A stretch of 43,233 nucleotides of DNA. It comes from a virus (lineage: Duplodnaviria > Heunggongvirae > Uroviricota > Caudoviricetes). Made by a program: the position numbers and the translations under genes. Below, one piece after another: positions 3,362-41,298 of the stretch. Under the pieces are notes generated by a model. The model had not been told where the DNA came from and searched no databases. It saw only the letters and a list, made by a program, of their open reading frames with translations. Positions within the stretch are counted from its first letter, which is position 1; each line of letters begins with the position of its first letter. The DNA lies in IMG/VR virus record IMGVR_UViG_2516143027_000009, one strand, 5' to 3'.

Positions 3362-3388
3362 CCCGCAAAATATTGCGGGCTTTTTTTT
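3362..3388 (+). terminator. Rho-independent terminator, plus-strand orientation, overlapping tailspike stop
   Basis: Hairpin CCCGCAAAATATTGCGGG followed by T8 on the plus strand; the minus-strand reading lacks a U-tract. Confidence 0.5.
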
Positions 3389-6300
3389 AACGTTCTTCCA
3401 GAGACTGAATCCGCTCTTTTATCTTATCCATTTCTCTGCGCTGCCATGCCGCCTCGATATAGAATAAGAGATCAGGTCTGACCCCCCATCTAGATCCTGC
3501 TGGCGTTATTTCAACGCGCTCAATGATGTCTTCCATTACCATCACTGGATTATCATCCTCATCAACAATGATGCTCCCTTCATTATCAGTCAGCGGCATT
3601 TCCCTTTGGCCAGTAATGACGTCATCATATACTGCGGGATAATCGTCATAGCAAAGAAAGGCATAGCGGCATGTTGTGCTTTCTTCTTCCATGAGTCCGT
3701 GAGAAATAAGAACATCACGAAGTTGCTGCGCGATTACACCATGATGTATCCTCGCCCCTTCTTCCCCCTTTATAGCGACAGCGTTCAGCCATTTATAAGC
3801 GATATACCTGACGTCACCCCAGGCATCCAGCAATGCTTCGTCAGGAGAGACCGGCTCTGTCTTTAATGTTCCGTCACTGGTAACCACAGGATTGGAGCCA
3901 AGATAAACTGTCGAGAACCTGTTTCCCGGACCACCAAGAGCATTTACATTATCAAGATAAGGTTTAACATCTCCGTTCTCAAAAAGATGTTCGAGTGCGT
4001 TATATACCGCGCGACGTGGAGTACTGCTTCCGGAACCATGCAACGTTATCATTGCACCATCTGCTGAAGACGTTGTTTCACCGCCGCTAACGATTAATCT
4101 CTGAGCGGTAACATCATCAGACGGTACTTTCTTCGCAATAATGGCGTAATTACCCTCAAGTTTGACTTCCGCGCGAACTTGTCCTGATGTACCTGCATGG
4201 ACAGTCAGTGACTGGACGGCAACATCATCTGTGAAATCAACGGGTACAGGAACCGTCCTCACGCCTGACGTCGACATAAAAGTAGGAAGCGTTCTGTTAG
4301 GAGTGGCTCCGTAGACAAAATCCCTTGAAACAAATTCTTCCTGTTTAATTTTCACCCTGAAACAATACAAATCAGCCGGGTGACCATCGTGAACATAAGG
4401 ATATTTTCTGTTGTTATCCCCTATGCTCCATGGGTTTAGAAAGTCTTCCCCACCGAAAATGTAGTACAGCCAGTTGTCTTTGATACAAACTGAACCAACA
4501 CCAACCGCAGAGTTAACTATTCCGCCCTGATAAATCTGATCAGTAACATTAACCCACTCTACATTATCCAGACTCCACTCATTGACGTTAACTCTGGTCA
4601 TAAATGTTCTTGGATAATTTCCTGCATAACGGTTATCAGGTTCTCCTCCTTCCCACTCACCAAATGCGCGCTCACTGCCAAAAATAATCAGCTCATCGCC
4701 AACTTTGGCAAAAGGAAGGTTTGAGTGATGAACATTATTTGGGAAGCGAAGAGAATTCCATGATGTACCTAAATCAGAGCTTCTGTGCAATGAACTACCG
4801 GGTTGAGTACTTAATGTCCCCCTGGTCGTCAGATACAGAATGCCATCATAATATTTTACACATGGCTCAGATGCATTCGCCTCATATTCTGCAGGTATGC
4901 GTCTGCGAACAAAGCTACCAGGAGAACCGAAAGCATCAGAGAAATAGAGTATCCCAAGCTCGCGTGGACCAATATCACCATTATGGTAGCCAACAGCAAA
5001 ACTGTTATCGCTAATCGTCGCAAAACTGTGAATCTCAGTAACAGGAGTGCTTCCGTCAACAAAAGAAGGAATAGTTCCAAGACTGGTTTTTCTCCATGGT
5101 GACGAGTGAAATGATGTACCAAAACTCCAGTATCTACCCTCGTTATTCTGATCCACATCCTGGGTATTTTGCGTCGTAACTGTAAAAGTATTTTTATCAA
5201 TAACAGTAGTCACCGTCATATTCCCGGTAACACCTGTAACACCAGAGTTTGAGAAGTTGACAAAATCACCAGCAAATAATCCGTGATCAGTAATGCGAAT
5301 ATAAGCGACTTGCTGATTTGCTGCTTTCGTTATACCACCATAAACGCGAAGGCTGCGACTCATTGGGCGATCCCACAACTCTGCAACCTGCAGTTTATTT
5401 CCGCTCACGGTCCGCGTCTCAATTACAGCAAAAAGGCGATTTCTGACAACCCCCATACTCATGCAGTGATAGTTAACTGTGGGATAGTTTTCATGTAAAT
5501 CTGTAAGCCATTCCGGCGTTGTCCAGGTCTTCCCGTCATCTCCTGAGCGAACCCATGCAACATGGAGGTTATTTACACCATGGCGGTCTCCAGCCATAAA
5601 AGGCGCATAGATGACATTGTCATATACAAACGTTTTATCCTGCGTCCAGGCGTTGTACCACGGTGTATCTGTAATTTTAAATAACTCTCCCTGGATAAAA
5701 TCTTCAGAAGCATAAAAAAGAGGCTGACCCGGTATTCTCTCAAATAAAAAACGAGCATTTTTAAATCGACTGACATCCGGAAGAGTTGATACTTTAAAAG
5801 TAAGCCCTAATCCGTCAATTTTATAACCTGGAGATGAGGCTTCAAGGCACGCGCTTATTGCAGTGGAATCGTCATTTATACCATCACCAACAGCTCCAAA
5901 ATCTTTGGGGCTAATAGCATCACGCATTTTATCCTGGAACGTTCGGTACACAGCCCCAGAACCATACTGAATAAACCAACCAAAACCACCAACAACCCCG
6001 GCGATTGCAGCATCGACATAATTACGCATTGAGCGATTATTTACAGCGTCCTGCTCAAATGATGGATCTGCAAGGTTAGAAATTTTGTTTTGCTTTGCAT
6101 CGTAATATTTTGCAAGCAAAGATGGTTTCATCAATGCACGTCTGAACCACCCAAAACATTGCTGGATCAGCATCGTCAGGTAGTCAAAGGCATCTTCATG
6201 CACTTCGGGGAAAAATTTTCCCTGATTGCGAAGGTCTGTCTCCTGCACTACATCAAGCACACGATCTATCGTAATTCGCCATCCAGTAGCAAGCGGAGAC

Positions 6301-6506
6301 GGAAGAACCACAGAACCGCCACTATAAGTGCCCGCCCCAGTTACCGTATAACCGGTATCCAGAACCAATTCTGTTACGTTTCCGTTCAGGTCAGACACCT
6401 GAACAACCAGGTCTGATTTTCTGAAAATTCGAAAAGTATACGGAAACGATGTCGTAACGCCGTTACCGGTGTATTCGTTGTGGTCAACTTCGGTTGAGAC
6501 CGTCAT
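3387..6506 (-). CDS. Tailspike or tail fiber protein with C-terminal intramolecular chaperone (peptidase S74-like) domain
   Basis: 1039 aa; N-terminal podovirus tail-fiber anchor-like segment (TGNGVTTSFPYTF); C-terminal ~150 aa resembles the self-cleaving chaperone domain of endosialidases and L-shaped fibers; position after the internal virion protein genes. Confidence 0.75.
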   Translation of the reverse strand: MTVSTEVDHNEYTGNGVTTSFPYTFRIFRKSDLVVQVSDLNGNVTELVLDTGYTVTGAGTYSGGSVVLPSPLATGWRITIDRVLDVVQETDLRNQGKFFPEVHEDAFDYLTMLIQQCFGWFRRALMKPSLLAKYYDAKQNKISNLADPSFEQDAVNNRSMRNYVDAAIAGVVGGFGWFIQYGSGAVYRTFQDKMRDAISPKDFGAVGDGINDDSTAISACLEASSPGYKIDGLGLTFKVSTLPDVSRFKNARFLFERIPGQPLFYASEDFIQGELFKITDTPWYNAWTQDKTFVYDNVIYAPFMAGDRHGVNNLHVAWVRSGDDGKTWTTPEWLTDLHENYPTVNYHCMSMGVVRNRLFAVIETRTVSGNKLQVAELWDRPMSRSLRVYGGITKAANQQVAYIRITDHGLFAGDFVNFSNSGVTGVTGNMTVTTVIDKNTFTVTTQNTQDVDQNNEGRYWSFGTSFHSSPWRKTSLGTIPSFVDGSTPVTEIHSFATISDNSFAVGYHNGDIGPRELGILYFSDAFGSPGSFVRRRIPAEYEANASEPCVKYYDGILYLTTRGTLSTQPGSSLHRSSDLGTSWNSLRFPNNVHHSNLPFAKVGDELIIFGSERAFGEWEGGEPDNRYAGNYPRTFMTRVNVNEWSLDNVEWVNVTDQIYQGGIVNSAVGVGSVCIKDNWLYYIFGGEDFLNPWSIGDNNRKYPYVHDGHPADLYCFRVKIKQEEFVSRDFVYGATPNRTLPTFMSTSGVRTVPVPVDFTDDVAVQSLTVHAGTSGQVRAEVKLEGNYAIIAKKVPSDDVTAQRLIVSGGETTSSADGAMITLHGSGSSTPRRAVYNALEHLFENGDVKPYLDNVNALGGPGNRFSTVYLGSNPVVTSDGTLKTEPVSPDEALLDAWGDVRYIAYKWLNAVAIKGEEGARIHHGVIAQQLRDVLISHGLMEEESTTCRYAFLCYDDYPAVYDDVITGQREMPLTDNEGSIIVDEDDNPVMVMEDIIERVEITPAGSRWGVRPDLLFYIEAAWQRREMDKIKERIQSLEER

Positions 6507-6610
6507 GTTAAATCTCCAGATAGTCGCAGCACCCGTTGCGCCGCATATCTGGTTATTCTATTACCTGGAAAACCACATATGGATAGAAAGGCTGTAAATA
6601 CGAATAGATA

Positions 6611-6625
6611 TTACCTTTCAGGTAA
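6611..6625. promoter_or_regulatory. Operator-like palindrome TTACC-TTTCA-GGTAA (copy 1)
   Basis: Same 5-5-5 palindrome as in the OR/OL regions; lies between the tailspike start and the 6702 gene. Confidence 0.5.
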
Positions 6626-6662
6626 TTTGCAAAACGTGCTGGATAGCAAACAAATTATTTGA

Positions 6663-6682
6663 TACTGTATAAATATACAGTT
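6663..6682. promoter_or_regulatory. LexA (SOS) box TACTGTATAAATATACAGTT
   Basis: Perfect CTGT-N8-ACAG with AT-rich spacer, about 20 bp upstream of the RBS and ATG of the 6702 gene. Confidence 0.7.
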
Positions 6683-6701
6683 ATTGCATGGAGAAGATAA
6701 G

Positions 6702-6959
6702 ATGCAGCAGTATCACTATCCACTGGAAGACGGATTTACCGAAAGGATTCACACGCCGGGAGGCGTCAGGTCACTGGTGGAGGGATCGCACTTGATGAAA
6801 TTACTCCGGGATCTCGATAAGGATGGATTTAATGTCGATGGCCCACTTGCCGAACTGACTGCACTGATTAACTACGTCACCAGCTCACAGATGTCTATGC
6901 AGGATCTGCAAACACATCTCGACTATTGTGCCGAACAATTACGAAAACAAACCCGGTAA
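6702..6959 (+). CDS. Small antirepressor-like protein: standalone copy of the module shared by three antirepressor fusions
   Basis: RBS GGAGAAG then ATG 6702; 85 aa; roughly 40% identity by eye to the C-terminal ~80 aa of the 8108, 9930 and 41299 gene products (shared PL..G...IH.P.GV..L.E.S.LM.LL..L..DG..V.G..AELT....Y......QTH..Y). Confidence 0.6.
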   Translation: MQQYHYPLEDGFTERIHTPGGVRSLVEGSHLMKLLRDLDKDGFNVDGPLAELTALINYVTSSQMSMQDLQTHLDYCAEQLRKQTR

Positions 6960-6981
6960 ATTTAAAGGCCGCAAGAGCGGC

Positions 6982-7710
6982 CTATCGTTTCGCTTTGTGC
7001 TCGTCCCAGCACGTTTTGCACCATGCCATTAAGCCGTCCGCATTTTGATTATTAGGGTAAAAGCTGGTCCGTTTTCTGCGGACATTACAAATTGGGCACC
7101 ACTTCATATGGCGTGTATTCTTTGGGCCATCGAGACACCTTGCACACCACTTAGTCAATCCATCTGGATTTTTTGACGATTTCCGGAATTTGTCATATGG
7201 AAGGTTTATTCTGCATCGCAAACACTGCTTGCGGCCACTTGAAACTCTGTTAGCTGATTCTTCTTTTGGCGGCGATACAGAAGGTATTCTTGCTGGCTCT
7301 GATACTGCCTGAGGTGCTTTTTTAGATGACTGAGACGATATGTCATCACCAGGGAATCTTCCATGATATGCCGGACGCGTTGACACTCCAGGTGGAAGCT
7401 CAGCTGTAAACGGCTTTGGCTGAATCAGTTGCCTCTCTTTTGCTAACTCCTGCTGTTTATAATATGTCTGGATTACCGCACTATCATAAGCAGGAGGTAC
7501 GGAAATATCAGGCGCGTTACCTCCAGTTTTTTGAAAATGAGTAGATGTGTGTTCTATCACCTGTGTACGACTAATCGTTACCTCCCCATCTTCGGTCTTT
7601 ATCGTTTTGTTCTGATTAACGACCGTACGATCAGAGATCTTAGTCTTGTTCTGGTTGATAACGTAAATAATCACCGCAACCACACCAACAACTATCCAGA
7701 AAACTTCCAT
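6982..7710 (-). CDS. Membrane-anchored protein with Pro-rich linker and tandem CxxC zinc-ribbon repeats
   Basis: N-terminal TM helix; two repeats C-x2-C...DGL..WC-x2-C; operator copy in its promoter region. Confidence 0.5.
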   Translation of the reverse strand: MEVFWIVVGVVAVIIYVINQNKTKISDRTVVNQNKTIKTEDGEVTISRTQVIEHTSTHFQKTGGNAPDISVPPAYDSAVIQTYYKQQELAKERQLIQPKPFTAELPPGVSTRPAYHGRFPGDDISSQSSKKAPQAVSEPARIPSVSPPKEESANRVSSGRKQCLRCRINLPYDKFRKSSKNPDGLTKWCARCLDGPKNTRHMKWCPICNVRRKRTSFYPNNQNADGLMAWCKTCWDEHKAKR

Positions 7711-7730
7711 TGCTTTTCCTCACAATAACA

Positions 7731-7745
7731 TTACCTTAAAGGTAA
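7731..7745. promoter_or_regulatory. Operator-like palindrome TTACC-TTAAA-GGTAA (copy 2)
   Basis: Sequence match to the operator consensus; divergent region between the 6982..7710 and 8108 genes. Confidence 0.5.
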
Positions 7746-7823
7746 TATCTTGCTTTCAGGTGATCAAGCGTTAAACGCAATCAACCAAATACGGTTGATT
7801 TTAATATTTCTTCGCGTTTATCA

Positions 7824-7838
7824 TTACCTTTGCGGTAA
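7824..7838. promoter_or_regulatory. Operator-like palindrome TTACC-TTTGC-GGTAA (copy 3)
   Basis: Sequence match to the operator consensus; upstream of the long leader of the 8108 gene. Confidence 0.5.
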
Positions 7839-7929
7839 ATTTACATCGCACTCCTCTTGTGCCATAGTAATCGGGCACTGGCAAAATCCAGTGCCGGGAT
7901 TGGCGTCCCGGGTTACTAAGTGGCGCATA

Positions 7930-7951
7930 CCACGCCAGACGTGGTTTTTTT
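7930..7951 (+). terminator. Intrinsic terminator inside the 5' leader of the BRO-domain antirepressor gene
   Basis: Hairpin CCACG-CCAGA-CGTGG followed by T7; about 150 nt upstream of the 8108 start codon. Confidence 0.45.
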
Positions 7952-8107
7952 ATGCGTTAAGCACAGCTATATCCGAATTATGGTGGGCTGGGCAGGGGTC
8001 CGAAAGGACGCCGGTACCACTTAGGCCGGTACGCCAACCTTGTCCAGTTCACCACCAGTAATTGGCGTTGCGGTGGTGATTAAAATCACTAAGTGGAGAT
8101 AACCACC

Positions 8108-8818
8108 ATGGCTAATGCTCAAACTTCCATCTTCAAATTTGAATCTGTTAACCCTATCCGTTCCATCATTATCGATGGCCAACCATGGTTTGTAGCCCAA
8201 GACGTTTGTAGTGCGCTGCGTATCCAAAACGTCACCCAAGCACTTGAAAAACTGGATGATGATGAAAGGTCTATGTTCAACATAGGGCATGAACATCGTG
8301 CAATTTTTGACAGCCGAGTAAAAGAGATCAACATCATCTCCGAGTCAGGCCTCTACACACTGATCCTCCGCTGCCGCGACGCAGTGACACCAGGCACTAT
8401 CCCCTACCGCTTTCGTAAATGGGTTACAGGTGAGGTTCTTCCTCAGATCCGCCGCACCGGAAGTTACATTAAAAACTCGCTCCCGCAGGAAGAACGCATA
8501 AAGATGGTTGCCGACCAGGTAGCCAACGCCACGGCGTCAGCAGTAATGCAGGCGATGAAGATAGAGAACAAAACCTACAGTGCCCCACTGAAGCCCGGCT
8601 ACCGTAGCCTGATTCATTCGCCGTCTGGTGTTCTCGGCCTGACGGAGAACTCACTGCTGATGAATCTGCTGAACCAGTTACAGGAAGACGGGCACGACGT
8701 ATCGGGCGCGGCGGCGGAACTGACCACCATGTTCTGCTACATCGTCGGTGTGAGCAAATGCCTGCGTGATATCCAGACCCACGCGGAGTACATCAACGAC
8801 AAGGCAGGGTTCTTCTGA
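8108..8818 (+). CDS. Antirepressor-like protein, N-terminal BRO-N domain fused to the shared C-terminal module
   Basis: N-terminal region typical of the BRO-N family (IFKFE...IDGQPWFVAQDVCSAL); RBS AAGTGGAG before ATG 8108; C-terminal 80 aa near-identical to the 9930 and 41299 products. Confidence 0.7.
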   Translation: MANAQTSIFKFESVNPIRSIIIDGQPWFVAQDVCSALRIQNVTQALEKLDDDERSMFNIGHEHRAIFDSRVKEINIISESGLYTLILRCRDAVTPGTIPYRFRKWVTGEVLPQIRRTGSYIKNSLPQEERIKMVADQVANATASAVMQAMKIENKTYSAPLKPGYRSLIHSPSGVLGLTENSLLMNLLNQLQEDGHDVSGAAAELTTMFCYIVGVSKCLRDIQTHAEYINDKAGFF

Positions 8819-9905: not shown

Positions 9906-10160
9906 GCACGTCCCTGTGCCGCCGTTCTGTCAGAAGAACCCTGCCTTGTCGTTGATGTATTCCGCGTGCGTCTGGATATCACGCAGGCATTTGCTCACAC
10001 CAACGATGTAGCAGAACATGGTGGTCAGCTCCGCCGCCGCGCCCGATACATCGTGCCCGTCTTCCTGTAACTGGTTCAGCAGATTCATCAGCAGTGAGTT
10101 CTCCGTCAGGCCGAGAACACCCGACGGCGAATGAATCAGACTGCGGTAGCCTGGCTTCAA
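9906..10160 (-). repeat. Copy B (inverted) of the ~260-bp repeat
   Basis: Reverse complement matches copies A and C, including the post-stop segment. Confidence 0.8.
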
Positions 10161-10868
10161 TGGATAACCATAACATTTTGTCTGTGTTTTAATTGCCTCA
10201 CGAAGCGCATCTAACATCTTGACTGCCACTTCATCATTCTCTGATGCAGATCCAGCAGGGAGATACTCCCCTTCAAGCGGAACCCGAGCAACAAGAGACA
10301 ACGCTTCGGCAAATTGATCTTCACCAATTTCTTTGTACGAACAGCCAAAATGAGATTTCAGTGACGACCACATGGTGATCATCGCCTTAGCCTGTTTTTC
10401 TTTTGGCAGAGACTGACCGCGACTCATGACGAGTTGTTTAATGGCTTCCTGCTGTTCAGTTGTTATTTTACCCGGCAACGCCTTTTTAGCTTTGCGTGGG
10501 TTAACCACATGGCCTTTAGTCCAGTACTCGTAGAGCACATCGTCACACTCTTCCTGATACTGGATTACCTTGTCGCGGATTTCAGGGCGGACTTTGTTAG
10601 GGCTGATGCTGTTCAACCAAGCTGCCAATTTTCGTAAAGCCATACAAATCATGGCTTGCACCCCACCGGCAGAAGGTATGGTGATTTCCACCATACCCTT
10701 CGAGAAGCGTTGAGAAATCTTCTTATGTTGAGATTTCCAGTCTAGCCCCATTCCCTCAACGATAGGTTTCATTGGGGTATACGGTTCGCCGTTGTGATTG
10801 ACAACATAAAGCTCTGCGCCGTGGAATGGCACGTTGATAGTAGATACTGCTGTTGCTATACTCGTCAT
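9930..10868 (-). CDS. ant: Antirepressor Ant-like protein (P22 Ant N-terminal-like domain plus shared C-terminal module)
   Basis: N-terminal FHGAELYVVNHNGEPYTPMKPIVEGMGLDWKSQ resembles the P22 antirepressor N-domain (from memory); located downstream of an Arc-like gene with a divergent Mnt-like gene, as in P22 immI. Confidence 0.65.
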   Translation of the reverse strand: MTSIATAVSTINVPFHGAELYVVNHNGEPYTPMKPIVEGMGLDWKSQHKKISQRFSKGMVEITIPSAGGVQAMICMALRKLAAWLNSISPNKVRPEIRDKVIQYQEECDDVLYEYWTKGHVVNPRKAKKALPGKITTEQQEAIKQLVMSRGQSLPKEKQAKAMITMWSSLKSHFGCSYKEIGEDQFAEALSLVARVPLEGEYLPAGSASENDEVAVKMLDALREAIKTQTKCYGYPLKPGYRSLIHSPSGVLGLTENSLLMNLLNQLQEDGHDVSGAAAELTTMFCYIVGVSKCLRDIQTHAEYINDKAGFF

Positions 10869-10942
10869 GTCGTTAATTCCTATACGTAGTTTTACGATAC
10901 TGAAGCCCTGACGGTCTGGCCACCGTGGGGCTTCGCTGTTTT
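10869..10942 (+). ncRNA. Candidate sar-like antisense RNA (antisense to the ant RBS and arc 3' end)
   Basis: Plus-strand promoter TTGATA-17 bp-TATACT at 10834..10862 inside the ant 5' end; hairpin 10902..10934 followed by a T-rich tract gives a predicted transcript of about 70 nt. Confidence 0.4.
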
Positions 10943-27382: not shown

Positions 27383-27459
27383 GTGGCATTAGCTCAGTTG
27401 GACAGAGCAACCGCCTTCTAAGCGGTTGGTCGCAGGTTCGAATCCTGCATGCCACGCCA
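27383..27459 (+). tRNA. tRNA-Arg (anticodon UCU), phage-encoded
   Basis: Cloverleaf by eye: acceptor GTGGCAT/ATGCCAC, D-arm GCTC-AGTTGGAC-AGAGC, anticodon stem ACCGC/GCGGT with loop CTTCTAA, T-arm GCAGG-TTCGAAT-CCTGC, discriminator G and encoded CCA. Confidence 0.85.
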
Positions 27460-35327: not shown

Positions 35328-35390
35328 TCACCCATAAGGTAACAAAAATCAAGGATGGTTACCTATGAGGTGCATTTACCTGTTGGGTAA
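35328..35390. promoter_or_regulatory. OR-like region with three operator palindromes between Cro-like and repressor genes
   Basis: TCACC-CATAA-GGTAA (35328..35342), TTACC-TATGA-GGTGC (35359..35373), TTACC-TGTTG-GGTAA (35376..35390). Confidence 0.65.
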
Positions 35391-35445: not shown

Positions 35446-36030
35446 ATGAAAAGTATCCAGGACGTCCGCAGGCAAAATCTCAACGACTTGATCGACCGTG
35501 AATTCAATGGTGTTCAGACGCGGATGGCAGAAAAACTTGGAACTCAGGCAAATCTGGTAAACCGCTGGGCTCTTGGCAAGAAGGTTATCGGCGACCAGGT
35601 TGCGCGAAAAATTGAAGCTGCCGCCAATAAACCCCGTAACTGGCTTGATATCGATCGCTCGCTTTCTCAGGAAGGTTTTCAGCCTGTCGGCCCAAGCGAC
35701 ATTGGTCAGCTGGCGGCTCACAACCTGGAACGCTGGATGAGCGAAAGCCGCGACCTTTCAACACAGGGAAAACTTCACCGCGCATCCGGCGTCGCCCAGG
35801 TGACAATCAGCCGCCTGTTAAACAATGAGGTCAGCGTTTCCATTTCCACCCTGGAGAATGTTGCATCCGCATTCGGGCGTCACGGATATGAACTACTGAT
35901 TCACCCGCACGACCCTGCGACTATCAACTATGACCGCTCACGCTACGCATTGTTACCCGAAACCGAGAAAGCAAAGATCGAAAGTTACATTGAATTTGTC
36001 ATCAACCAGAACGAAAAAAGCAAACAATAA
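35446..36030 (+). CDS. Immunity repressor (CI-like), dual HTH, no S24 peptidase domain
   Basis: N-terminal HTH (TQANLVNRWALGKKVIGDQVARKIEAAANKPRNWL) and a second HTH-like segment (ASGVAQVTISRLLNNEVSVSISTLENVASAFG); no Ser/Lys autocleavage motifs; flanked by operator clusters. Confidence 0.65.
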   Translation: MKSIQDVRRQNLNDLIDREFNGVQTRMAEKLGTQANLVNRWALGKKVIGDQVARKIEAAANKPRNWLDIDRSLSQEGFQPVGPSDIGQLAAHNLERWMSESRDLSTQGKLHRASGVAQVTISRLLNNEVSVSISTLENVASAFGRHGYELLIHPHDPATINYDRSRYALLPETEKAKIESYIEFVINQNEKSKQ

Positions 36031-41135: not shown

Positions 41136-41298
41136 GCCTGCAATCTGGCATAGTCACATCCGTACAAAGGTCGGGTGGAGAGGCGTAATACAACACCCGA
41201 AAGGGGAATATGCCCGGAGCTACTGTTTGTGCTCTAGTTGACACCCGATCACCAGCTACTAACTGGTTTTCGTAACTAAAAACAAACAGGAGGTCATC

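Follow-up and report, generated by a model that had tools for sequence, protein, structure and literature searches.

A membrane-anchored tandem zinc-ribbon protein in an accessory cassette of an Escherichia coli epsilon15-like prophage is a candidate exclusion or abortive-infection protein

The stretch of viral DNA analyzed here (IMG/VR record IMGVR_UViG_2516143027_000009, 43 kb; referred to as the window at its full length of 43,233 nucleotides) is an Escherichia coli epsilon15-like (Uetakevirus-type) temperate podovirus prophage. One of its genes, the target gene, located at 6982–7710, encodes a protein with an N-terminal transmembrane (TM) helix, a disordered linker, and two predicted zinc ribbons. 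From the context of the gene, we tentatively infer that the product is a membrane-tethered, nucleic-acid-binding superinfection-exclusion or abortive-infection protein. A role of phage against phage is suggested because the gene forms a polymorphic cassette, its family occupies rexAB-like and sieA-like positions, and the protein combines a membrane anchor with a conserved, basic, non-catalytic zinc module. Genes in the immunity regions of temperate phages are a classic source of exclusion and abortive-infection systems (rexAB, sieA/sieB), and to our knowledge the mechanisms of very few of these systems are known.

Domain layout and membrane topology

The target gene starts at an ATG preceded at 6 nt by the Shine-Dalgarno sequence GAGGA. 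An identical copy (100% identity) is carried by a prophage of E. coli MS8345, where the product is annotated as a hypothetical protein (WP_000451764.1). Residues 1–21 are strongly hydrophobic, with a Kyte-Doolittle maximum of 2.33 over residues 1–19, and a full-length AlphaFold2 model built with 29 homologues forms a helix at residues 3–21, so the N-terminal TM helix proposed in an earlier reading of the sequence (the original prediction) was supported by both hydropathy and modeling. The helix is followed by a juxtamembrane beta-hairpin with strands at residues 29–39 and 42–52; its motif, T.I....TI.T..G.....ER, is kept across the family, and G42 is nearly invariant. The Pro-rich linker was likewise recovered, with 14 Pro and 13 Ser in the 102 residues from 57 to 158 and a predicted local distance difference test (pLDDT) score of about 50; it varies in length and sequence among aligned relatives. 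The remainder, residues 160–241, is modeled as a compact C-terminal domain with pLDDT >90. The protein contains exactly eight cysteines, arranged as two C-x2-C-x22-C-x2-C units that each carry DGL..WC, and the two ribbons are 35% identical to each other (E = 2e-7), in agreement with the internal repeat that had been noted before.

Across the family, the helix has almost no N-terminal flank: by the hydropathy-window measure, the median flank length is 0 residues (about 3 at most), and its net charge is -0.1. Over the 15 residues that follow the helix, the net charge is +1.8. Based on these flank charges, the basic Cys-rich C-terminal domain, and the lack of signal-peptide features, an N-out/C-in orientation with a cytoplasmic C-terminal domain is by far the most likely. 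A periplasmic Cys-rich domain was rejected on account of the positive-inside charge distribution, the lack of a signal peptidase-type N-terminus, and the domain charge of +14. A small-xxx-small motif is found within the first 24 residues of 19 of the 51 family members aligned below.

Relationship of the zinc ribbons to nuclease-associated modules

Over residues 1–242, the protein matches positions 1–242 of the profile of PHROG 6762 (E = 3.9e-148, 492.9 bits), a family of unknown function. By this full-length profile match it belongs to PHROG 6762, a membership that says nothing about mechanism. By the profile evidence it is also related to Pfam Stc1 (PF12898) at a sub-threshold level, with 21.4 bits and E = 3.8e-4 in two stretches against a gathering threshold of 24.8 bits; a precomputed PF12898 match is available for one family member. 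In the Pfam scan at E up to 10, the only other matches were to two RING-finger families. The eight conserved cysteines, in the arrangement 2 x C-x2-C-x22-C-x2-C, correspond to an Stc1-type tandem module, for which zinc binding is predicted.

Within PHROG families labeled endonuclease VII, HNH endonuclease, endonuclease, and Lar-like, the ribbons align with the segments that hold a ribbon (E = 1e-5 to 9e-12). Ribbon 1 matches the N-terminal region of the "endonuclease VII" family phrog_1035 at E = 9e-12. Ribbon 2 matches phrog_2633 and phrog_5558, the latter named "Lar-like restriction alleviation protein" and matched at E = 2.2e-8 by residues 201–241 on profile positions 7–47 of 130 only. The profile search returned 1,589 representatives in total, which beyond the full-length family include proteins with 2–10 copies of the same ribbon. 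When 64 of these ribbon-array proteins were scanned against Pfam, Stc1 was found in 36 (best E = 3.4e-18), HNH in 8, HNH_5 in 8, and Endonuclease_7 in 6.

Structure prediction and fold searches also bore out the zinc-ribbon character put forward in the original prediction. A Foldseek search of the full-length model against the PDB gave noise only (best E = 1.0), owing to the disordered linker, and the C-terminal domain was then modeled separately. Both ribbons were modeled with pLDDT >90, the nearest solved folds were Hpy99I (3fc3) and PacI (3m7k), and the fold matches in BFVD were HNH, beta-beta-alpha-Me, endonuclease VII, and "Stc1 domain" proteins. The module resembles the structural Cys4 zinc module of nucleases in consisting of a beta-hairpin and a helix. 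A profile search of the PDB found no similarity to p16.7 or to any solved protein beyond the zinc motif of PacI. Taken with the ribbon-array proteins, these profile matches identify the ribbons, at the level of sequence, as structural Cys4 modules of the type that accompanies HNH-type nucleases.

No nuclease domain (Pfam HNH, HNH_5, or Endonuclease_7) was found in the window protein at E up to 10, and the PHROG endonuclease VII/HNH matches cover the ribbon parts alone (for example, positions 45–95 of 271). Across the alignment, the zinc domain has no conserved catalytic His or metal-ligand Asn/His; its conserved positions are Cys, Trp, Asp-Gly, Lys, Phe, Arg, and Leu. A catalytic HNH nuclease was rejected for this lack of conserved catalytic residues. 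A ZAS-type anti-sigma factor was also rejected, since the topology is wrong and the CxxC pairs lack a conserved His. The target protein thus differs from the Stc1-like ribbon proteins and HNH nucleases (PF12898, Hpy99I, PacI) in having neither a nuclease domain nor the conserved catalytic His/Asn, and it is unique in joining the ribbons to a membrane anchor. The net charge of the zinc domain is +15 in the window protein and ranges from +8 to +18 across the family (median, +14), which is compatible with nucleic-acid binding, although it is not proof of it.

NCBIfam gave no assignment for the protein, and no source in the large protein collection names any family member. The earlier remark that this is not a standard phage function was therefore fair: the PHROG is of unknown function, no Pfam family lies above threshold, NCBIfam and PADLOC contribute nothing, and there is no name.

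Conservation, selection, and distribution of the family

The open reading frame is intact (242 codons) in 55 of 55 IMG/VR sibling loci, and the 38 distinct E. coli alleles give a pooled ratio of nonsynonymous to synonymous polymorphism (pN/pS) of 0.27 overall. By region, the ratio is 0.27 in the TM helix and hairpin, 0.72 in the linker, and 0.064 in the zinc domain. Because all frames are intact and the overall pN/pS is 0.27, the gene is real, and it is under selection. The copy in phage TL-2011b, recorded as a misc_feature only, was considered as a pseudogene and rejected, as it is intact with 242 codons at 95% identity (L067). Of 5,426 complete E. coli genomes, 129 (about 2%) carry the gene at full length.

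Protein homologues with 37–64% identity were found in Superficieibacter, Enterobacter, Citrobacter, Salmonella, Serratia, Providencia, and Buttiauxella. The profile search recovered about 70 representatives (at the 50% identity level) of 180–240 residues with the same order of TM helix, hairpin, variable linker, and two ribbons. Genome and viral-contig scans added members from Edwardsiella, Yersinia phages YeP4-6, Acinetobacter, Aeromonas phage phiARM81mr, Marinobacterium, Oceanobacter, Neptunomonas, Pseudoalteromonas, and Pasteurellaceae. Conservation was assessed in an alignment of 51 diverse members that are only 22–68% identical. Met1, all eight cysteines, and W188 are invariant in it, and N21, G42, K161, F175, D183, G184, K203, R212, D225, G226, L227, and W230 are nearly so. 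The invariance of the eight cysteines and W188 among the 51 relatives, together with the low pN/pS of the zinc domain among the 38 alleles, indicates that the cysteine pattern is not due to chance.

Some relatives deviate from this layout. In Yersinia phage YeP5, the homologue (L009, 1900–2634) has a (KT)8 repeat directly after the TM helix, and the true start probably lies about 29 codons downstream of the annotated one. Relatives in Pasteurellaceae (Haemophilus, L019 5611–6252; Aggregatibacter, L018 5845–6261) keep the two ribbons and have a coiled-coil-like segment in place of the hairpin and linker. The Haemophilus relative has a TM helix and the Aggregatibacter relative apparently has none; the membrane anchor may thus not be universal in the family.

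Operator and promoter of the target gene

A pattern search located a perfect 17-bp palindrome (O1) directly upstream of the gene, and the -10 of the predicted sigma-70 promoter falls within the left half of O1 (Table 1). This agrees with the earlier claim that an operator copy lies in the promoter. The search gave 23 strand matches against 1.0 expected. The core TTACC-N5-GGTAA occurs in 11 exact copies in the window (at 6611, 7731, 7824, 8890, 27046, 30209, 33027, 33089, 35376, 36088, and 36150) and in 14 with one mismatch, compared with a mean of about 1.3 in shuffled sequences. The copies are dispersed over the genome upstream of several transcription units and in this resemble the C1 regulon of P1. 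Since the copies at 35376, 36088, and 36150 cluster around the repressor gene at 35446–36030, the palindrome is very probably the operator of the main repressor of the phage. The presumed repressor has helix-turn-helix (HTH) domains without an S24 protease (autocleavage) domain, and the prophage has two antirepressor modules with antisense RNAs, on account of which induction presumably proceeds by antirepression.

O1 is unchanged in 53 of 54 E. coli-type siblings and has one point change in the remaining one. Prophages of the Citrobacter/Enterobacter type, of Serratia, and of Providencia have an equivalent operator in this position. The layout of a -35, a 17-bp spacer, and a -10 inside the operator recurs in loci L080, L081, L084, L085, L002, L088, and L006, in which the homologue follows same-strand genes and lies each time behind the terminator of the upstream operon. 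In L080, L081, L084, and L085, the promoter is TTGACC-17-TACCTT within ATTACCTTATGGGTAAT; in Serratia, it is TTGAAC-17-TACCTT within a TTACC..GGTGA palindrome. The Providencia promoter (TTGAAT-17-TAACCT) lies in a TTAACC-N5-GGTTAA palindrome, which indicates a different operator specificity with the same geometry. In several Enterobacteriaceae prophages (L011, L080, L081, L084, and L085), a second palindrome, TGTGACATGTCACA, closely precedes the -35, at about 74 nt from the ATG of the homologue; it does not occur in the window, and its half-sites are CRP-like with the wrong spacing.

Because the operator overlaps the -10, the target gene would be part of the repressor regulon, silent or weakly expressed in a stable lysogen and turned on once the phage infects or is induced. 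This predicted expression upon de-repression, as well as the Stc1-like type of the ribbons, the extension of the family beyond E. coli, and the isrK and C4 genes described below, were absent from the original prediction.

The target gene is a dispensable, polymorphic cassette

Phage phiV10 does not carry the target gene. In a blastn comparison of window positions 6500–8200, homology to phiV10 stops at 6953 and resumes at 7834, and the interval consists of exactly the gene with its ribosome-binding site, the terminator-like hairpin, and the O1-bearing promoter region. We surveyed this slot in 80 sibling prophages fetched via the neighboring gp19-like gene. The slot was empty in 42, held the target gene in 25 (about 30%), held an unrelated two-gene cassette in 5, and was missing in the other 8. 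The gene is dispensable, as shown by its absence from phiV10 and from 42 of the 80 siblings, and its presence is polymorphic.

This dispensability among near-identical prophages speaks against a core role in the phage's own replication. We considered that the protein could be an early, membrane-anchored, non-specific DNA binder that tethers the phage's own DNA or replication intermediates in the manner of phi29 p16.7, a membrane-anchored DNA-binding early protein of a lytic Bacillus phage. The design would fit, as a TM anchor, a spacer, and a basic domain of a nucleic-acid-binding type are joined; some relatives (the Haemophilus relative; P0088, P0091, and P0119) have the coiled-coil-like segment in place of the hairpin and linker; and the operator in the promoter implies early or de-repressed expression in this phage. 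The likeness to p16.7 is an analogy only, since the fold and sequence are unrelated and p16.7 was not matched in the PDB profile search, and the family differs from it in being accessory and, by prediction, co-transcribed with cI in lambdoid phages. The latter position would lead to expression in lysogens in which no phage replication takes place. A replication tether is accordingly a doubtful explanation, slightly more so than the regulatory one weighed in the next section.

The other cargo of the slot and its surroundings was also inspected. The alternative cassette consists of two same-strand genes of 151–179 and 189–203 residues (L108, 5258–6397; L178, 5252–6480), and its good promoter (TTGCCA-18-TAGAAT) precedes an operator-like site; a protein related to this cassette (L148, 6675–7187) has a sub-threshold match to the YafO toxin. 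The Superficieibacter homologue has as neighbors (L011, 5419–5883) a HicA toxin/HicB-like (DUF1902) pair, in which HicA is above the Pfam cut-off. In Marinobacterium (L016, 6654–7307), a secreted staphylococcal-nuclease-like protein with an Excalibur domain is encoded immediately downstream of the homologue (PADLOC candidate C3a212, E = 6e-8).

Homologues occupy immunity regions of very different phages

In Aeromonas phage phiARM81mr, Marinobacterium, Neptunomonas, and eight IMG/VR contigs, the homologue lies 15–18 nt downstream of a cI-type repressor gene (HTH plus Peptidase_S24, verified by Pfam), and the gap holds a Shine-Dalgarno sequence alone (L010, L016, L021, L096-L103). The distance is 54 nt in an Acinetobacter prophage, with a hairpin in the gap, and one small gene separates cI and the homologue in two further loci. 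The homologue is arranged tail-to-tail with cI in Oceanobacter, Pseudoalteromonas, and IMG/VR contig L105. Judging from the short gaps, the lambdoid homologues should be co-transcribed with cI and thus made in lysogens. The target gene itself is not adjacent to cI; it has its own promoter and lies 28 kb from the repressor gene.

In epsilon15-like prophages (Serratia, Superficieibacter, Citrobacter/Enterobacter-type, Edwardsiella), the homologue adjoins an antirepressor gene of the Bro-N, KilA-N, Rha, or P22_AR type; in Providencia (L006), no antirepressor gene stands beside it. In Acinetobacter corruptisaponis (L013), the homologue follows an Arc-like repressor gene, which in turn is divergent from a KilA-N antirepressor gene. 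No flanking or partner gene is conserved among the homologue loci, so the protein apparently acts alone as a single-gene system, and a two-gene system was rejected for the same reason.

These positions raise the question of a regulatory function. A regulator of the lysis-lysogeny decision at the membrane could sequester or protect a regulatory factor, which might be the repressor, an antirepressor, or, through the membrane protease FtsH as with lambda CIII, a CII-like protein. Most loci, in very different phages, are in or beside immunity modules (cI, Arc/Mnt-like, antirepressors, isrK/C4), and both arrangements, early under operator control or co-transcribed with cI, would give expression during the establishment of lysogeny. 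However, presence/absence polymorphism among near-identical prophages is atypical of a core regulator and disfavors this explanation as it does the replication tether. There is also no conserved partner and no co-variation with one kind of antirepressor, since the adjacent antirepressor varies in type and is missing in Providencia, and the ribbon type goes with nucleases rather than with known regulator-sequestering proteins. We therefore regard a regulator as unlikely.

The position in the cI operon is in turn an argument against two further explanations, both of which we consider improbable and neither more so than the other. In the first, the protein would be an early counter-defense or host-takeover protein, either Lar-like in anti-restriction or an inhibitor of host nucleases that mimics or titrates HNH-type zinc modules. 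The match of ribbon 2 to the Lar-like phrog_5558, the timing implied by operator-controlled early expression, and the accessory, polymorphic cassette would all suit such a role. However, no Lar family appeared in the Pfam scan at E up to 10, the PHROG match reflects the generic ribbon only, the membrane anchor would have no explanation in anti-restriction, and co-transcription with cI is unusual for anti-defense genes. In the second, the protein would be a host inhibitor or toxin resembling Kil or Icd, controlled by the repressor and blocking division or damaging the membrane on induction, without any role in exclusion. The gene adjoins a module like the c4-ant module of P1 immI, which in P1 contains the division inhibitor icd. 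The single TM helix, the small-xxx-small motif seen in 19 of the 51 members, the predicted repression by the phage repressor, and the toxin-antitoxin-like cargo of the slot and region (HicA above the cut-off, YafO-like below it) point in the same direction. A constitutive toxin would, however, not be tolerable in the cI operon of the lambdoid relatives, and the strong purifying selection on the ribbons (pN/pS of 0.064) points to a specific ligand rather than to generic membrane toxicity.

A possible role in exclusion or abortive infection

The original prediction had left open whether the protein is a sensor, an exclusion protein, or a regulator. Of these, context favors exclusion or defense, by the dispensable cassette, the rex position, and the Arc/Mnt-like neighbor, and a regulatory role retains the low probability given above. 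As a temperate-phage immunity-region accessory gene, the element is of a familiar kind; the design of the protein would be new, and so would its mechanism if it is an exclusion protein.

For the exclusion or abortive-infection reading, we propose the following model. The N-terminal helix would anchor the protein in the inner membrane with essentially nothing in the periplasm, and on the cytoplasmic side a short beta-hairpin and a flexible leash of about 100 residues would carry the two basic, non-catalytic Cys4 ribbons. At the site where a superinfecting genome enters, the tethered ribbons might capture the incoming nucleic acid or the DNA-ejection complex. The outcome could be that entry of the second genome is blocked (exclusion) or that clustering of the TM helices damages the membrane (abortive infection). 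In the lambdoid relatives, expression with cI would protect lysogens; in this phage, cells newly deprived of repressor immunity would gain protection, as de-repression turns the gene on. Exclusion functions that are produced early in lytic growth have precedents in T4 Imm and Sp and in T5 Llp. It is conceivable, at a lower level of confidence than the exclusion or abortive-infection role itself, that the family constitutes an unrecognized class of single-polypeptide exclusion or abortive-infection proteins, widespread in gammaproteobacterial temperate phages in the rex slot and in a sieA-like slot, whose inactivated HNH-type fingers on a leash seize DNA or the ejection complex.

Sequence comparison showed no homology of the target protein to SieA, Rex, or any catalogued defense protein, and the likeness to known exclusion systems is one of position and design. 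The rexAB genes of lambda are located behind cI, and the lambdoid homologues occupy the same slot, behind cI or between cI and the leftward early genes. Both systems include a membrane component. Rex consists of two proteins, a soluble sensor and RexB with four TM segments, in contrast to the one polypeptide with one TM helix found here.

A further comparison is with P22 SieA. Both are prophage-encoded inner-membrane proteins (the membrane location of the target protein being predicted), both are single-gene cassettes with their own promoter, and both lie in the immI neighborhood of a short-tailed temperate phage, in the region from the tailspike gene to the ejection/core genes and near antirepressor control. 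In P22, the neighbors of sieA are orf59a and mnt, and the gene is flanked by the ejection-protein genes on one side and the tailspike gene on the other (PMC10883804); the homologue of A. corruptisaponis behind its Arc/Mnt-like gene is reminiscent of sieA beside mnt. SieA has three TM segments and no zinc ribbons (PMC10883804), which sets it apart from the target protein with one TM helix and two ribbons. The motif FxRYPxEAxxFNK of SieA types A-C (PMC10883804) is absent from the target protein. The two also differ in that SieA is made from the prophage, whereas the promoter of the window gene is under a repressor operator.

Several observations weigh against an exclusion role. Repression in a stable lysogen, as predicted here, would be unlike the behavior of a classical exclusion gene expressed in lysogens, and the predicted timing in this phage differs from that in the cI operon of the lambdoid relatives, so that a functional model must fit both. 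The generic consensus promoter scan did not call the promoter of the target gene; by this and by the distance of the -10 (TACCTT) from the consensus, the promoter is probably weak. Zinc ribbons are able to bind proteins as well as nucleic acids, and the fusions to nucleases are guilt by association. The only trace of SieA homology was "Sie-like" phrog_8545 at E = 0.89, covering the TM region alone, and PADLOC-DB 2.0 gave 0 families at E up to 1, so that no known defense protein was matched. Two of the genes in the slot and beside the homologues resemble toxin-antitoxin genes (HicA, and YafO-like below the threshold) and are not proven defense genes. In the literature, we found no publication on this family and no experimental datum for any member.

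The family is small (proteins of about 200 residues), apparently a single-gene system, and occurs in E. coli, Serratia, Providencia, Yersinia, Edwardsiella, Acinetobacter, Aeromonas, and marine Gammaproteobacteria. If the exclusion reading is true, it would represent a mechanistically new defense, in which zinc fingers derived from nucleases form a nucleic-acid binder tethered to the membrane. The family would then be relevant to phage therapy against K1 and Shiga toxin-producing E. coli strains with such prophages, and it would offer a tractable model for the passage of phage DNA across the inner membrane. Even as a regulator or as a tether for replication, the protein would add a new component to the immunity regions of temperate phages.

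Features of the locus and neighboring genes

The features of the locus are collected in Table 1. The region of the target gene is 94% identical to phage TL-2011b and, in part, 91–95% identical to phiV10, ZX5, and relatives; the ZX5 paper defines a repressor and an antirepressor and no operators. On one side, the target gene is flanked by the small gp19-like gene at 6702–6959 (+) and the tailspike gene at 3387–6506 (-), and on the other by the antirepressor region and then the ejection/core-protein genes. The claim that the gene is divergent from a BRO antirepressor gene was correct: the gene at 8093–8818 (+) encodes a Bro-N antirepressor (Pfam Bro-N, E = 1e-19). The 382-bp spacer between the two is occupied by the small RNA genes isrK and C4 (Rfam), which the original prediction had missed, and O2 abuts the -35 of the predicted isrK/C4/ant promoter. 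The order of isrK, C4, and antirepressor gene is that of the P1 immI region.

Table 1. Features of the target gene and its surroundings in the window
Feature	Position	Strand	Basis and remarks
Accessory cassette (terminator, gene, promoter, O1), about 880 bp	6954..7833	.	blastn against phiV10
Terminator-like hairpin AGGCCGC-TCTT-GCGGCCT, then TTTAAATTT	6966..6983	-	Straight after the stop codon; terminator scan
Coding sequence, 242 residues	6982..7710 (stop codon 6982-6984)	-	List of open reading frames; full-length match to PHROG 6762
Zinc ribbon 2, residues 203-241, with C-terminal helix (C205, C208, C231, C234)	6988..7104	-	pLDDT >90
Zinc ribbon 1, residues 161-194 (C163, C166, C189, C192)	7129..7230	-	pLDDT >90
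Disordered Pro/Ser/Gln-rich linker, residues 54-158	7237..7551	-	pLDDT 46-64
Juxtamembrane beta-hairpin, residues 29-52	7555..7626	-	AlphaFold2 strands, pLDDT about 78
N-terminal transmembrane helix, residues 3-21	7648..7704	-	Hydropathy and AlphaFold2; helix pLDDT about 90
Shine-Dalgarno sequence GAGGA	7717..7721	-	Read from the sequence; conserved in 54 sibling loci
Operator O1, perfect 17-bp palindrome ATTACCTTAAAGGTAAT	7730..7746	.	Pattern search; 20 bp upstream of the ATG
Predicted sigma-70 promoter: -35 TTGATC 7767-7762, 17-bp spacer, -10 TACCTT 7744-7739	7739..7767	-	
Operator O2 ATTACCTTTGCGGTAAA	7823..7839	.	93 bp from O1, centre to centre; also in phiV10
isrK	7875-7951	+	Rfam; just ahead of the antirepressor gene
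C4 antisense RNA	7976-8059	+	Rfam; just ahead of the antirepressor gene

A second antirepressor gene at 9930–10868 (-) encodes a P22_AR_N domain, and the sar RNA (10870–10937, +) is antisense to its 5' end. The prophage thus has two antirepressor modules under different antisense RNAs, one with isrK and C4 (P1 immI-like) and one with sar (P22 immI-like). The N-terminal domains of the two antirepressors are unrelated, and their C-terminal regions of about 100 residues are common to both at 84% identity. The gp19-like gene is a free-standing copy of this common C-terminal domain (42% identity, E = 9e-16) with an operator copy upstream (6610–6626); its product could serve as a mini-antirepressor or compete with the antirepressors.

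In the identical prophage of MS8345, the adjacent tailspike is annotated with an endosialidase catalytic beta-propeller domain, which suggests that the tailspike is specific for the K1 capsule. A tRNA gene lies mid-prophage at 27383–27456 (+) and is tRNA-Arg according to the MS8345 annotation. Near the right end of the window, Rfam gave a match to sRNA-Xcc1 at 41169–41258 (+) with 64.8 bits.

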